From IMG/VR virus record IMGVR_UViG_2617270939_000001: a DNA stretch of 12,103 nt; one strand, written 5' to 3'. This document shows positions 1,341-10,047 of this stretch, piece after piece; the first letter of the stretch is position 1; every line of letters starts with the position of its first letter. Under the pieces are notes generated by a model. That model saw only the letters and a list, made by a program, of their open reading frames with translations, did no database searches and was not told where the DNA came from. Origin of the DNA: a virus (Duplodnaviria > Heunggongvirae > Uroviricota > Caudoviricetes). The position numbers and the translations under genes were made by a program.

Positions 1341-1916
1341 CTACGGCAGTGCTGGCCATTCAATATCCTGTGCAGTTGACGTATCAACACGGTTCAGCAA
1401 TACCCGATACTTTTTCCATGCTTCCAGCAACGAGATTTCTTCCTCCGTTGCAATTTCCAGATCTGCAGCATCCTGAAGCGGCGCAATATGCTCACTGGCT
1501 ACCTGCATCAGGCTGTTTTTTGTTTCTTCCGCCTCCCGGATCCGGAACAGTTTTTCTGCTTCCGTATCCTTCACCCAGGCTGTGCCGTTCCACTTCTGAT
1601 ATTCCCCTCCCGGCGATAACCAGGTAACATTTTCCGGTAACGGACCGAGTTCAGAAATAAATAACGCGTCGCCGGAAGCCACGTCATAAACCGTTTTACC
1701 CCGATGATCTTCAACGAGATGCCACGATGCCTCATCACTGTTGAAAACAGCCACGAAGCCTGCCGGAATATCTGGCGGTGCAATATCGGTACTGTTTGCT
1801 GGCAGACCTGTATGAGGCGGAATATATGCGTCACCTTCACCAATAAATTCATTAGTTCCGGCCAGCAGATTATAAATTTTTATGGTCCGTGGTTGTTCAC
1901 TCATTCTGAATGCCAT
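1341..1916 (-). CDS. tfa: Tail fibre assembly protein (Tfa), 191 aa
   Basis: Its start codon (1914-1916) shares one base with the stf stop (1916-1918), TAATG on the coding strand. Protein is TfaQ/TfaR-like. Convergent with pin, as in Rac and Qin. Confidence 0.85.
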
Positions 1917-3904
1917 TATGCAAGCCTCACAATATAGTTAAATGCGATGTTTTTGACGGTGTTTTCCGCGTTACCAGCAGCGTTAACGGTGATGGTATGT
2001 CCATGTGAACCAATCGCAACGGAGTGCGTATGAGCACCAATACCGACAGTATGTGCGTGTGCACCTGCGCTTGCAGCAGTACCCGATACAGAGTGCGTAT
2101 GAGCGCCTGCAGAAGAAGTGTTAACACTGTATTTAGAATAATCAGGTGATCCACTTCCCGGAGCACCACTGGAACCACCTGAAACAAATGTCATCGAATG
2201 GGTATGTGCACCGGCTGAAGCAGCCGTACCGCTAACACTATGGGTATGCGCACCAGTGTTATTCGTGGATTTAGTGCCGTAATCAAACGACGATGTGGTT
2301 TTCGTCCCCAAATCCGTACTGGATACGCTGGCGCTGTGGGTGTGTGATTTAATGCCGTCCTGTTCCTGAGACAATACGGCTCGATCACTGGCGGGCTTGC
2401 CCTTAATCGTCCAGCCACGCATATCAGGGATCACGCCTGACGGATAAGCGGCTGCAAGTTTCGGGTAAGCAGATTTGTCAAAAGTCTGCCCCTGCATCAG
2501 GGCATAACCAGACGGAACGGTATCTGATGGCCACGGGATTGGTGCGCCGACTGGATAAAACTCTGCAGGAGGATGAGCCGAGGTGTAAAGCTGCGCCCAC
2601 GGCGACCAGTTTGCGTCGGTCGTATCCCGTCGTGAACGAATAAATGCCGGAGCATGATCGCCGCTGGTTCCACTCCAGCCAATAAGTAACTCACCCTCTC
2701 CTACTGCGGTTACACCAGTGAGATGAAGCACATTACCATAGGTTGTTGGGTAGCCATTGTTGTATGCCTCATACATCTGAATGCCTGGTGTACCCTTTGC
2801 GCTCCCACTTAATGCCGTAACACGGTTTCTGGATACTAACGTATTAATATTTATATCGCTGGAACCATCAAATTTAACTCCATTTATATTTATCGCATTT
2901 TGTAACTTGGTTGCTGTCAATGCGTTACCGTTCAGACTTGCGGACAGTTTGGTTCCAATAACCAGTTCGCCGGTTGCGTTATCAATAGCAAACGGTCTTA
3001 ATGTATTCCAGCCACCATAAACATCACCTTGATTGGTAAGCAGCAGGTAAGTTTTAGCGCCATCATTACGCCATAATGCACCATACTCCCCACCTATCAT
3101 TCGAATCTGATTACCACCACGCGCTACAATTTCGTCTGTGGCAAAAAGTTTTTTGCACGACAAGTTATCGTTAACGATTAACGAATGAGACTCATAAAAA
3201 CCACGCCCACTCTTAAAATCAAGGATAACGTCCGCCGCGATACATTCAGTCGCCGGATTTGTTGCCCCAAACTTATAGGTCGTATCATTAACAACGAGAT
3301 CAGCACCAGGTGCGGATATTGACAGGCCATCTTCGATAAACGCAAAAACAGGGAAAGCAGCGCCATCAACATAGAACACAGAGCGCAAATCATCGCCCTT
3401 ATTACTCATCATTATTGAGTGGATGGCTCGTTCATTGTTTTGATATTGCCAGAACATTCCATAAGCATAACGCCCCCTGTCAGTCCAGCCACCAGGCATA
3501 ACAAATCCGTTAAACTCGCAGTTATTCATCGGATCGCCTGCGGTTCGCGTTGCCGTGGTGATAATGACCCTTGATGCCAGTTCGCTTACTGAGCCAGCAG
3601 AACGCATAACAGCAACAGGGTAATATTTTCCAGATGTTGCACCTGCAGGAGCGTTAACCCGCACATAACGCATACCACGCTTATCAGCAAAGTCTGTTTT
3701 ACTGACCGCGTTAATGTTGTTCAGGAAGCGTCCCTTATCGGGTATATCAGCGCCGTTCTGGTCTTTCTGCAGACGTTTCTCTGCATTGTCATAGGCTGCT
3801 TTTACTGCCTTTGGCGTTGCCGCCAGCGTTTCAGACGTGCTGTTGGTCGCACTGCTGAGCTGTACTATCCCCTTTTTCGTCGTGCTCGCATCCTCAAGCG
3901 CCAC
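1916..3904 (-). CDS. stf: Side tail fibre protein (Stf), C-terminal portion only; the frame is open up to about 4294 but has no ATG, and homology to lambda Stf begins about 4230
   Basis: Translation matches the lambda Stf middle and C-terminus ([35 protein letters not shown] … [14 protein letters not shown] … [31 protein letters not shown]). Upstream in the same frame (3905-4230) is the Ala/Ser/Thr-rich repeat typical of Stf. The 3904 start in the ORF track is a GTG (Val in SAVALED), not a true start. Confidence 0.8.
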
Positions 3905-6251: not shown

Positions 6252-6482
6252 TCAACTCAAGAGCCTTATTGCTGCTTCCAGAATTTCTTCTGAAGTAACA
6301 TGTCGATCCGCGGCTACATAAATGACTTTATGATCTCCGGTCAGAGATGGAAACCCTGCGGCCATTACAGTAAGGTGTGTTTTTTCGCCATTTGGATATT
6401 CACGCATGATGGTGTTAACTCCAGTCATCGCTGGCACTACCACTGCTGGTTCAGAGTTAAAAAAAACTATGATTTTTTTCAT
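6252..6482 (-). CDS. Small hypothetical protein, 76 aa from MKKIIVFF (track ORF extends to a further upstream ATG at 6524); at the position of the cold-shock-induced ynfN in Qin
   Basis: Clean ORF in the AT-rich cargo block, same strand as the flanking gnsB and cspI. Start is ambiguous and the SD is weak. I do not recognise the sequence with confidence. Confidence 0.5.
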   Translation of the reverse strand: MKKIIVFFNSEPAVVVPAMTGVNTIMREYPNGEKTHLTVMAAGFPSLTGDHKVIYVAADRHVTSEEILEAAIRLLS

Positions 6483-6523
6483 GATGTTACCGTAGTATGT
6501 GAGTATCCATCGAATAGACACCA

Positions 6524-6560
6524 AGCAAAAAAGCTCCCGAAGGAGCCTTCATTTTCACTT
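6524..6560. terminator. Candidate terminator/attenuator hairpin between cspI and the downstream small ORF
   Basis: GCTCC-cgaa-GGAGC, a 5-bp GC stem with a GNRA-like loop, flanked by an A run (6524-6532) and T-rich sequence (6551-6565). Stem is short. Confidence 0.3.
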
Positions 6561-6753
6561 TTTTAAATCCAACGACAGACGGCTGGCATTTAAGTATTGT
6601 GAAATATTATCAAATGTAATCATCATTGATTTACAAAAGATACATTTTGCCCCGAAAGGATTCATGTCAGAAACATCAAAAGATGATGTTCTATACTGGG
6701 AACCATGACAACACGGGCATCTAAAGTGAATATGGTTTGTAATATTGTCTACC

Positions 6754-6966
6754 TCAAAGCGCCACTACATGAACAGCGGCAGGACCTTTAGGTCCGTTCT
6801 CAATACCAAATTCAACTTCCTGATTCTCAGTTAATGTTTTGAAATCGTTGCTCTGAATTGCTGAGAAATGGACAAACACATCTTTGCTGCCATCTTTCGG
6901 CGTGATGAAACCAAAACCTTTTTCAGGGTTAAACCATTTCACTAAACCAGTCATTTTGTTAGACAT
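6754..6966 (-). CDS. cspI: Cold-shock protein CspI (CspA family), 70 aa
   Basis: [70 protein letters not shown] carries RNP1 (KGFGFI) and RNP2 (VFVHF). Confidence 0.9.
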
Positions 6967-7098
6967 AATTATTACCTTTTGAAGAAATTAGCCCTTGGGC
7001 AGAATGGTCCGAAAAAAAATATCAGAGAGAAAAACCAACAAGGAAATCTCAAGAGGTACAAATAATAAAATTATAACAATGACTGCTTCAGATAAATT

Positions 7099-7146
7099 TG
7101 TAACAAACCAGAACACCATTAACGCATGATTAACCACCCATAGCAA
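7099..7146 (-). promoter_or_regulatory. Predicted cspI promoter (-35 TTGCTA 7146-7141, 17-bp spacer, -10 GTTAAT 7123-7118) and cold-box-like 5' UTR start (GGTTTGTTACA, 7109-7099)
   Basis: Same layout as the cspB promoter in this window, and similar to the cspA promoter (TTGCAT/CTTAAT) followed by a GGTTTGACGTACAGAC cold box, as I recall it. Predicted 5' UTR about 144 nt. Confidence 0.45.
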
Positions 7147-7328: not shown

Positions 7329-8662
<1,334 letters not shown>

Positions 8663-8882: not shown

Positions 8883-9101
8883 ATCCTCACCCCGATGTAC
8901 ACGGATGGTGCAATATGTTTGAAAAGATCGGAGTCTACGGGGTAGTTTTGACAGCACACGTTGTTCTCAACGGCGCTAAAAAAACATACACATTAAAAAT
9001 GTGGGTAATTATTTTGAAAGAAAGTCATATATAAAATAATAATACGAGAAATGTTTTCATATTTAGTGTACTGTATACGGCCATTTATACAGGAAAAGCC
9101 T

Positions 9102-9272
9102 ATGTCAGAACGTAAAGACTCAAAATCACGCCGTAATTATCTCGTTAAATGTTCCTGCCCAAACTGCACCCAAGAGTCAGAACACAGTTTTTCAAGAGTA
9201 CAGAAAGGTGCCCTTTTGATCTGCCCTCATTGCAACAAAGTATTCCAGACAAATCTTAAAGCTGTAGCCTGA
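9102..9272 (+). CDS. Small zinc-ribbon protein, 56 aa, of the kind described as YnfQ/YmcF-type small proteins next to csp genes
   Basis: AGGAAAA SD before ATG 9102. Two CxxC pairs (CSCPNC … CPHC). Antisense to the late lysis operon. The upstream part of the track ORF (from 9051) lacks an SD. Confidence 0.6.
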   Translation: MSERKDSKSRRNYLVKCSCPNCTQESEHSFSRVQKGALLICPHCNKVFQTNLKAVA

Positions 9273-9327
9273 TTGATTTTATTAGTAACAAGTATTTTTT
9301 ATATTTTAATAATATATTTAAAGCAGA

Positions 9328-9354
9328 TAATAAAAAACCCGCCTGAGCGGGTTT
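9328..9354 (-). terminator. Rho-independent terminator acting on the minus strand (downstream of cspB)
   Basis: Perfect 8-bp stem AAACCCGC-ctga-GCGGGTTT (9335-9354), followed on the minus-strand transcript by a U run (plus-strand A run 9328-9337). Confidence 0.7.
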
Positions 9355-9635
9355 GAGATTGTGGTGCTTTTTGTGGGAGTCATCCACTTACGCACTTTGT
9401 TTTGCGATGCCAGCAGTTAGCTTCTGCTGTGAAACTATTCATGCAGCAAACCTGCACTTCACCACAATGGTTAGCATACTTTTCCTGATTAAGATTTTGC
9501 CAAATATGCTGGCCATTGTTTCATGTATTGGACCTCCTTACTTTTTATTAAAGAGATCCAATATTCACTACTCTGTCCGTATCTCTACTCAGGCATCAGC
9601 CTTCTTCGTTATCGTATACAGACGAGCGATGAATT

Positions 9636-9851
9636 TTAATCAGTAATGATGACATTTGCTGCTGCAGGACCTTTAGCACCACTCTCTATAGAGAAGGTAA
9701 CCTTTTGACCTTCAAATAAGGTTCGATAATTATCATTCTGAATCGCAGAAAAATGCACAAACACATCTTTACTACCATCAACAGGAGAAATAAAGCCGAA
9801 ACCTTTATCAGCGTTAAACCATTTTACTAAACCAGTCATTTTATTTGACAT
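9636..9851 (-). CDS. cspB: Cold-shock protein CspB (CspA family), 71 aa
   Basis: [67 protein letters not shown]… with RNP1 and RNP2 motifs. AAGGAA SD. Confidence 0.9.
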
Positions 9852-9993
9852 TCTACATTCCTTAACTTGAGCCTTTCGGCATAAATGGTTTGCATAACAG
9901 AAACGACTTCGTACTTAATTGGAGAGACTCAAAGAAGGAATAAGTGAATAACACCTGAAATGAGAACTGCTTTAGTAAACTACTTCGTATATC

Positions 9994-10047
9994 GTCTGTT
10001 CTTCAAACCGACGCAGTCATTAACTCATAGTTGAACATATGAAGCAA
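9994..10047 (-). promoter_or_regulatory. Predicted cspB promoter (-35 TTGCTT 10047-10042, 17-bp spacer, -10 GTTAAT 10024-10019) and cold box at the 5' UTR start (CGGTTTGAAGAACAGAC, about 10010-9994)
   Basis: Minus strand reads TTGCTT-n17-GTTAAT-gactgcgt-CGGTTTGAAGAACAGACGA…AAAGCAG, closely paralleling the cspA promoter and cold box as I recall them. Predicted 5' UTR about 159 nt (10010 to 9852). Confidence 0.55.

Follow-up and report, generated by a model that had tools for sequence, protein, structure and literature searches.

The 3' untranslated region (UTR) of the cold-shock gene cspB in a Qin-type prophage contains a perfect Shine-Dalgarno (SD) sequence followed by an 11-codon mini open reading frame (ORF). 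We consider it probable that the 3' UTR of cspB-type genes is a conserved structured RNA of which this SD-like sequence and its ATG are by-products, and in which the hairpin that contains the SD (P2) is protective and the mini-ORF does not encode a functional peptide. The DNA studied, termed the window below, is the whole stretch of 12,103 nucleotides (nt) of IMG/VR virus record IMGVR_UViG_2617270939_000001 (Caudoviricetes), and both cspB and the mini-ORF lie on its minus strand, with the region of interest at positions 9355-9635. The window is approximately 99% identical to the Qin prophage of Escherichia coli K-12 MG1655, without gaps across the cspB 3' stretch, and MG1655 coordinates were obtained from this gap-free alignment by adding 1631703 to the window position.

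The original prediction had proposed the SD and ATG as the start of an unannotated micro-protein or leader peptide, or as an element affecting cspB mRNA stability. A check of the sequence placed TAAGGAGGT at 9540-9532(-), followed by the 7-nt spacer CCAATAC, the ATG at 9524-9522 and the TAA at 9491-9489, all exactly as had been described. The end of the cspB coding sequence at 9636 (ORF 9636-9851(-)) and the terminator beyond it at 9354-9335 were likewise confirmed, the latter as the sole terminator-like site 3' of the cspB stop codon in a terminator scan; the other minus-strand site listed by the scan, 9812-9795, falls within the cspB coding sequence. The argument that such a motif is rare by chance stood only in part. 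The motif is mildly unusual, with 0.16 occurrences of AAGGAGG-N4-9-ATG expected per window, but at least one was present in 31 of 200 dinucleotide shuffles of the window, and TAAGGAGGT with up to one mismatch occurred 3 times in the window against 1.7 expected. Thus, the SD and ATG by themselves are not significant. The RNA structure around the SD was far beyond chance, both for the 3' UTR as a whole and for the hairpin that contains the SD.

Structured RNA begins directly after the cspB stop codon and occupies the entire 3' UTR of approximately 300 nt, as a series of hairpins (P1, P2 and P3), a four-way junction (P4 to P7) and a terminator. The features are as follows.

9636-9851, minus strand: cspB, cold-shock protein with the C-terminus ...NVIITD before the stop (ORF list, and RefSeq annotation of identical or 99% identical loci)
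9563-9634, minus strand: P1, a long stem-loop whose internal loop is purine-rich, GAUAACGAAGA / CUGAGUAGA
9527-9562, minus strand: P2, a hairpin of 14 base pairs (bp), AUUGGAUCUCUUUA - AUAAAAAG - UAAGGAGGUCCAAU, 36 nt, -17.1 kcal/mol, z = -7.0
9489-9524, minus strand: mini-ORF of 11 codons, MKQWPAYLAKS (ATG AAA CAA TGG CCA GCA TAT TTG GCA AAA TCT TAA)
9464-9519, minus strand: P3, a long hairpin, ACAAUGG..AGCAUAUUU / AAGUAUGCU..CCAUUGU
9361-9465, minus strand: four-way junction, closed by helix P4 (GUGGUG 9465-9460 with CACCAC 9366-9361)
9457-9441, minus strand: P5, junction arm
9429-9411, minus strand: P6, junction arm with the 7-nt loop AAGCUAA
9398-9387, minus strand: AAAGUGCGUAAG, single-stranded within the junction model
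9387-9373, minus strand: P7, junction arm
9327-9354, minus strand: intrinsic terminator, AAACCCGC-UCAG-GCGGGUUU followed by a U-run (terminator scan)

Between the cspB stop codon and the terminator, the 313-nt RNA folds at -105 kcal/mol, against -70 +/- 5 kcal/mol in shuffled sequences (z = -6.7). Within this stretch, the P1 region (9560-9640) folds at -26 kcal/mol (z = -4.6), with an outer stem that pairs 9623-9616 with 9582-9575 and an inner stem of AGGC with GCCU. The SD and the ORF body both coincide with helices: the SD (9540-9532) is the 3' arm of P2, TAAGGAGGUCCAAU, while the coding part runs along the 5' arm of P3 (codons 3-8) and into its loop (codons 9-11).

We investigated the conservation of this fold in 19 lineage representatives of less than 94% identity, aligned with MAFFT from sequence alone and not fitted to structure. 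RNAalifold recovered P3, P5, P6 and P7 from this alignment. In the core model, consisting of P3 and the junction (36 scored pairs), 96.6% of cells were paired and 12 of the 36 pairs showed double changes, compared with 4.7 +/- 1.5 in column shuffles, none of 500 of which reached 12, and with 0-2 in controls for which the partners had been slid by 1-3 columns. Changes on both sides were found in five of the 13 pairs of P3. In the closing helix P4, which RNAalifold missed, clean double changes were present at two columns, one from A-U to G-C (five sequences) and the other from U-A to C-G (two sequences); the alternative pairing that RNAalifold offered in its place, GUGC/GCAY, showed one-sided changes only and was rejected. 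For P1, which could be compared in 14 lineages, eight of the nine outer-stem pairs had changed on both sides, giving a covariation score of 0.469 against 0.242 in shuffles (0/500 reaching 0.469), and the internal loop was conserved across lineages as GAUAACGAWGA / CUGAGUAGA. A covariance model, R1, matched the window at 9523-9356 with 142.9 bits (E = 1e-32). The csp 3' UTR element is a conserved structured RNA, the fold of which is kept by compensatory changes across independent lineages, and the compensatory support spans Enterobacteriaceae prophages, phage-plasmids and chromosomes.

Two further observations concern the details of the fold. Inspected by eye, the internal loop of P1 has tandem G-A beside the inner stem, and resembles the protein-binding motifs of the k-turn or loop-E type. 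Bases 9468-9466(-) can pair either with 9517-9515, at the base of P3, or with 9360-9358, as an extension of P4, and both alternatives covary; this may represent a structural switch or a by-product of a few shared events, the independent events being few.

The element is apparently undescribed, as we found no Rfam family or paper that corresponds to it. Searches of Rfam 15 gave no match at the gathering threshold, and only terminator-type or chance matches at E <= 10, and known ribozymes, riboswitches and small RNAs (sRNAs) were rejected for want of any Rfam match of note. The junction helices are in cloverleaf order; a tRNA or tmRNA was rejected, with none found by ARAGORN and with A, not U, in the 7-nt loop at the position of tRNA U33. 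Among the papers searchable in full text, the conserved strings of the element led to unrelated ones only, and literature searches found nothing relevant on the cspB 3' UTR in connection with sRNAs or Hfq, on cold shock and Qin, on cross-linking and immunoprecipitation (CLIP) of ProQ, on RNA names of the RIL-seq kind, or on the mini-ORF peptide.

We identified the element widely in enterobacterial genomes and their phages. In BLAST searches with the UTR alone, 1716 of 5426 complete E. coli genomes carried it, as did several temperate phages, and the more distant phage-plasmid Cyrano and phage PHB10 were matched in the 3' half; a pattern-anchored alignment indicated that Cyrano also retains P1. 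A pattern built from two conserved blocks and scanned against public collections found the element in at least 119 viral and at least 26 genome contigs, the latter from Escherichia, Shigella, Enterobacter, Kosakonia, Kluyvera, Phytobacter, Raoultella, Superficieibacter and Pseudescherichia. The loop AAGCUAA and the strand AAAGUGCGUAAG served as the search keys for the family, and their invariance is by construction and not evidence. A looser pattern gave 120 metagenome contigs, and 93 of the 100 that were searched matched the covariance model at 110-181 bits. In 141 of 152 instances a CspA-family gene ends 150-220 nt upstream of the start of the element, and the other instances were cut by contig ends, or disrupted or replaced. 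The upstream Csp proteins end in ...NVIITD, ...NVVALS, ...NVILCDK or ...NVTLCDR. Some copies are located between the gene for antiterminator Q and the lysis genes, others beside umuDC and the gene for an SOS-response peptidase (SRAP), and one between hicAB and dnaE on a phage-plasmid. The csp gene and its 3' tail travel together.

Individual copies showed additional features. In L138 (Raoultella lignicola), seven tandem copies of GAAAGCCT occupy the junction linker between P5 and P6, and the remainder of the element is intact. In L081, at approximately 2940-2975(+), a transposase-like gene with an end resembling that of an insertion sequence (by appearance) adjoins CCATTGTGG, as an apparent mobile-element insertion that cuts the element inside P3. 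In phage Cyrano (L004), an unannotated CspA-family ORF lies upstream of the element at approximately 2600-2860(+), in the gap between hicB and dnaE.

Within this structure, the ribosome-binding site of the mini-ORF is predicted to be inaccessible. In partition-function calculations on the whole UTR, eight of the nine SD bases had an unpaired probability below 0.01 at 10, 15, 25 and 37 C. The first U of the SD was unpaired with a probability of at most 0.05 between 10 and 42 C, and the second base with a probability of 0.012 at 42 C, at which temperature seven of the nine bases were still more than 99% paired. Forcing open the region from -18 to +12 around the AUG is predicted to cost approximately 20 kcal/mol. 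The AUG itself lies in the short linker between P2 and P3, where the calculations leave it mostly unpaired at 37 C. Cold is predicted to strengthen P2, not to weaken it.

The sequence of P2 is lineage-specific. A strong hairpin is present at this position in Qin, Cyrano, L104 and L130, with those of Cyrano and L104 being unrelated in sequence, and P2 is weak or absent elsewhere. We considered an RNA thermometer of the FourU or ROSE type and rejected it: the match to FourU (RF01795) at 9529-9560 scored 16.6 bits (E = 0.99) against a gathering threshold of 60, the hairpin is located in a 3' UTR, and each base of the SD is at least 95% paired at 42 C. P2 was similarly rejected as an intrinsic terminator, being followed by ACAUGAAAC, with no U-run, and the terminator scan lists only 9354-9335 in the UTR.

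The conservation of the SD and ORF in related sequences, which the original prediction had named as a check, proved poor. A scan of the UTRs for an SD-like pentamer or hexamer with ATG, GTG or TTG at 4-10 nt found this combination in one of the 19 lineage representatives, the Qin type, and in none of the other 18. In other lineages, the position aligned to the SD and ATG reads ...UCGACACAACGG, ...UCAUUACAACAGG or ...UCUUAAUAUCAGG. Even relatives with the same CspB C-terminus as the Qin type can lack the ORF: L272 and L273 keep P1 and P4-P7, and P2, P3 and the ORF are gone, while in E. coli ECGI0523 (L146) unrelated sequence stands in place of P2, P3 and the ORF. At 6400-6600(-) in L272 and 8884-9030(-) in L273, a short unrelated hairpin, GUGGGUAUUGAAUCCCAU, replaces P2 and P3 including the SD and mini-ORF, and cspB 3' UTRs of this type represent a natural deletion variant.

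Among approximately 100 Qin-type copies, we identified six distinct substitutions in the 33 coding bases of the mini-ORF (P5L, A9V, K10I, S11T, S11P and W4stop). Five are non-synonymous, one is nonsense (W4stop, in one copy) and none is synonymous, and four of the 11 residues vary, a pattern that in this small sample appears compatible with neutrality and not with constraint. The ATG is kept in nearly all of the copies, but these are more than 95% identical to one another and its retention therefore says little. Changes in P2 within the Qin type mostly keep pairing, with a G.U to A-U change that converts GGAGG into GGAGA, and two C to U changes that give G.U; both GGAGA and GGCGG occur as variants of the SD. 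In E. coli K-12 the mini-ORF reads MKQWLAYLAKS, and the change responsible (CCA to CUA, P5L) restores a base pair in P3. These substitutions follow the pattern of an RNA helix and not of a peptide, and the mini-ORF is not conserved as a gene. The MG1655 RefSeq record has no gene annotated at the position of the mini-ORF, and does annotate ynfU, ynfS, ynfR, ynfT and ynfQ, the small genes of Qin discovered by tagging or ribosome profiling.

Published RNA 3' ends coincide with the mini-ORF start codon. Adams et al. (2021, eLife, PMC7815308) mapped 3' ends in MG1655 by Term-seq in three conditions (Supplementary file 1), with the following entries at this position.

LB, optical density (OD) 0.4: MG1655 1641226, minus strand, 604,404 reads, class orphan (PMC7815308)
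LB, OD 2.0: MG1655 1641224, minus strand, 1,233,565 reads, class orphan (PMC7815308)
M63 glucose: MG1655 1641224, minus strand, 2,464,295 reads, class orphan (PMC7815308)

In that file, the flanks printed around the end (...GTAAGGAGGTCCAATACAT before and GA... after it) and a thrL control row identify base 51 of the 61-nt strings as the 3' nucleotide. Position 1641226 corresponds to window position 9523, the U of the mini-ORF AUG, and 1641224 to window position 9521, the A that follows the end of the AUG, which places these ends 4 and 6 nt beyond the final base pair of P2. The read counts were among the highest in the portion of the file covered here, compared with 3.5 million for a tRNA end and 57,000 for the end of the attenuated cspB 5' UTR at 1641634. 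The orphan class of Adams et al. (2021, PMC7815308) includes ends in long 3' UTRs. For ends located in the zone from 200 nt 5' of an ORF up to the stop codon, that paper attributes to RNA processing those that are neither intrinsic nor Rho-dependent. At the predicted terminator (MG1655 16410xx) no minus-strand 3' end is listed in the three conditions, at 37 C; the terminator hairpin does give a plus-strand end at MG1655 1641060, on the ynfU side, where the U-tract is weaker (PMC7815308). At 37 C the dominant cspB-sense RNA thus ends just after P2, on the AUG or two bases later, and the SD in the main RNA is severed from any ORF.

These observations suggest a role of the 3' UTR in mRNA 3'-end processing or stability, which is our best guess as to its function. 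P2 would be a 3'-terminal protective hairpin for the cspB RNA, and the 3' end might be made by endonucleolytic cleavage in the A/U-rich linker between P2 and P3, ACAUGAAAC, or alternatively by exonucleolytic trimming back to P2. The core of approximately 160 nt (P3 and P4-P7) might in turn act in cis on the csp mRNA as a module for its processing or stability, or govern the fate of the full-length transcript, and perhaps be mostly relevant in the cold, when cspB is induced. The suggestion in the original prediction of an element affecting cspB mRNA stability thus pointed in the right direction, towards a conserved structured 3' UTR with the SD hairpin at the 3' end of an abundant RNA, while the role in stability itself is one that we infer. 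The micro-protein and the leader peptide fared poorly: the SD and ATG are confined to the Qin type and are lost or replaced in some near-identical relatives, the ORF has accumulated no synonymous substitution, the SD is locked in a predicted hairpin of -17 kcal/mol, the dominant K-12 RNA 3' end maps onto the start codon, and the ORF is unannotated in K-12 though neighbouring small genes are annotated.

Several points weigh against the interpretation of the SD and ATG as by-products of a protective RNA structure. The Term-seq data come from 37 C cultures only. There is no U-run after P2 to account for the 3' end; the lack of a listed end at the terminator of the core is hard to reconcile with a transcript that is cleaved and of which both halves are kept. 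The covariation events are few, and are concentrated in four or five lineages. Cold-shock proteins of the CspA family are RNA chaperones that melt structure, and P2 could therefore open in vivo. Finally, low-level or cold-specific translation of the mini-ORF may occur.

We tentatively consider, as a possibility with perhaps a minority share of the likelihood, that the core belongs to a new class of functional RNA, either a switch responsive to Csp proteins or temperature that uses the alternative pairings of 9468-9466, or a trans-acting or protein-binding RNA carried with the csp moron. As a switch, the core would steer csp mRNA processing at the P2-P3 linker and thereby set the amount of stable cspB message.

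It is rather unlikely that the core and terminator (approximately 9520-9327) form a trans-acting sRNA derived from the 3' UTR of the cspB transcript, with the SD and ATG marking its 5' processing site. Conservation of the element is highest in its 3' half, the sole part matched by BLAST in Cyrano and PHB10, a 3' end of the processing type lies just upstream of the core, and the Qin type ends in a good intrinsic terminator with a U-tail. AAGCUAA and AAAGUGCGUAAG, which are single-stranded in the model, could be seeds, their invariance carrying no weight here as they are the search keys. However, the missing minus-strand Term-seq end at the terminator in all three conditions argues against a stable released sRNA at 37 C. 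Only some lineages carry an intrinsic terminator after the element, and many, including PHB10 and the Enterobacter types, have no obvious terminator after P4. We found no above-chance complementary target within the window, with pairing of the loops to cspB, cspI and the other window RNAs at chance level, and no sigma-70-like promoter was found by a scan of the minus strand within 9355-9635. The constant linkage of the element to a csp gene moreover fits a role in cis.

We give little credence to a regulatory frame, in which occasional translation of the mini-ORF, after P2 has been opened by Csp proteins or cold, would unfold P3 and control the processing or stability of the 3' UTR, much as a leader peptide does at the 5' end. 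A ribosome on the ORF would disrupt P3, as the ORF covers precisely the 5' arm of this helix, the covarying alternatives of 9468-9466 hint at a switch, and the product of the gene is itself an RNA chaperone. Yet the 18 other lineage representatives keep P3 and the junction without an SD or start codon, and because of this the conserved function is independent of translation. The predicted stabilisation of P2 in the cold and the separation of the SD from the ORF by the major 3' end also count against this model.

Similarly little credence attaches to the mini-ORF as a genuine 11-amino-acid (aa) micro-protein gene, specific to the Qin lineage and translated from its strong SD. The perfect 9-nt SD, the 7-nt spacing, the retention of the ATG and the mostly unpaired AUG are as such a gene would have them, but the SD is buried in P2 at all modelled temperatures, the main RNA species ends on the AUG, and the substitutions (including W4stop) and the SD variants GGAGA and GGCGG are those listed above. 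The ORF is absent from the other lineages as well as from L272, L273 and L146, the Qin-type copies are too similar for the retained ATG to be strong evidence, and K-12 annotation omits the ORF though it includes experimentally found small genes nearby. A protein encoded on the opposite strand, by the 97-codon plus-strand ORF at 9353-9646, is barely credible: this ORF exists, and the HannyBb and PhiR63_1 records annotate a 79-aa coding sequence ('hypothetical protein'), but apart from the Qin type a frame of this length is open just in L138, which bears the repeats, and in part in L137 (78 codons). In the remaining 15 full-length representatives no more than 56 codons are free of stops, the lengths of indels between lineages do not fit a triplet frame, and the covariation of paired columns accounts for the conservation.

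Downstream of the element, the terminator hairpin (9327-9354) is common to cspB and to a convergent gene, and its U-tract is better on the cspB side.

9102-9272, plus strand: ynfU, a convergent small zinc-binding protein gene (K-12 annotation via the coordinate offset, and ORF list)

Elsewhere in the window, cspI and cspB both carry the cspA thermoregulator 5' UTR of Rfam, at 6727-7112(-) and 9620-10012(-), respectively. The structured 3' element is found only at cspB; cspI is followed by ynfQ and ynfR. A full-length match to Rfam IS009 (221 bits) is located at 1375-1573(-), inside a tfaQ-like tail-fibre assembly ORF. At 7823-8662(-) there is a single 279-aa ORF where K-12 has separate ydfR and rrrQ, and at 1916-3904(-) a 662-aa side-tail-fibre ORF where K-12 stfQ has 320 aa. 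The prophage copy in the window is less decayed than K-12 Qin, or differently rearranged.

We compared the element with known systems. Processed or Rho-terminated transcripts are reportedly trimmed back to a 3'-terminal stabilising stem-loop. P2 is similar to such stem-loops in being stable, in having a 3' end a few nt downstream with no U-tract, and in lying in a long 3' UTR; it differs from them in being one module of a multi-domain structure of approximately 300 nt, and in having a 3' arm that is a perfect SD, and its own protective role would be an extension from their example. P2 recalls the FourU and ROSE thermometers in that its U/C-rich CUCUUU pairs with AAGGAG and an AUG follows directly after the hairpin. 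Unlike these, P2 lies in a 3' UTR, has 14 bp and -17 kcal/mol, is predicted to remain unmelted at 42 C and controls no conserved ORF.

Closer to the gene itself, the cspA thermoregulator (RF01766), which cspB carries at 9620-10012(-) with 158.8 bits, is similarly a large structured mRNA segment of the same genes for which temperature-dependent mRNA behaviour is proposed. RF01766 is a 5' UTR family, whereas the element described here is at the other end of the mRNA, with an unrelated sequence and fold and no Rfam family. The 3' ends of csp mRNAs are reportedly controlled by ProQ and exonucleases, with cspE protected from RNase II, and an RNase E site is said to lie between the cspA stop codon and the 3' stem-loop. 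By analogy with cspE and cspA, the stability of cspB mRNA may be set at its structured 3' end, although the cspE and cspA 3' UTRs are short terminator hairpins, unlike the approximately 300-nt structure of cspB. Other structured RNAs occur at the Q-lysis junction as 3'-UTR-derived sRNAs or phage moron RNAs, such as IpeX downstream of nmpC in DLP12. Like IpeX, the element is a structured RNA downstream of a moron gene, between Q and the lysis genes of a lambdoid prophage, with an intrinsic terminator. In contrast to IpeX, accumulation of the core is not seen in Term-seq, and the element also occurs outside phage late regions (beside umuDC or SRAP genes, and on phage-plasmids).

For the annotation of small genes, the cspB 3' UTR illustrates that a textbook SD and ATG can arise as by-products of helix formation in an RNA; before a site of this kind is called in a small-ORF scan, its structure and conservation should be examined. 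Beyond this, roughly one in three complete E. coli genomes has a cold-shock mRNA with this large conserved RNA structure at its 3' end, and in E. coli K-12 the structure coincides with an RNA 3' end that is among the more abundant in the portion of the published list covered here.

Temperature-dependent mRNA stability has its classic example in the cold-shock mRNAs, for which to our knowledge nearly all work on stability deals with the 5' UTRs. With a structured 3' module, the control of cold-shock mRNAs would gain a second layer, and the element may explain why phages move csp genes together with their 3' tail.

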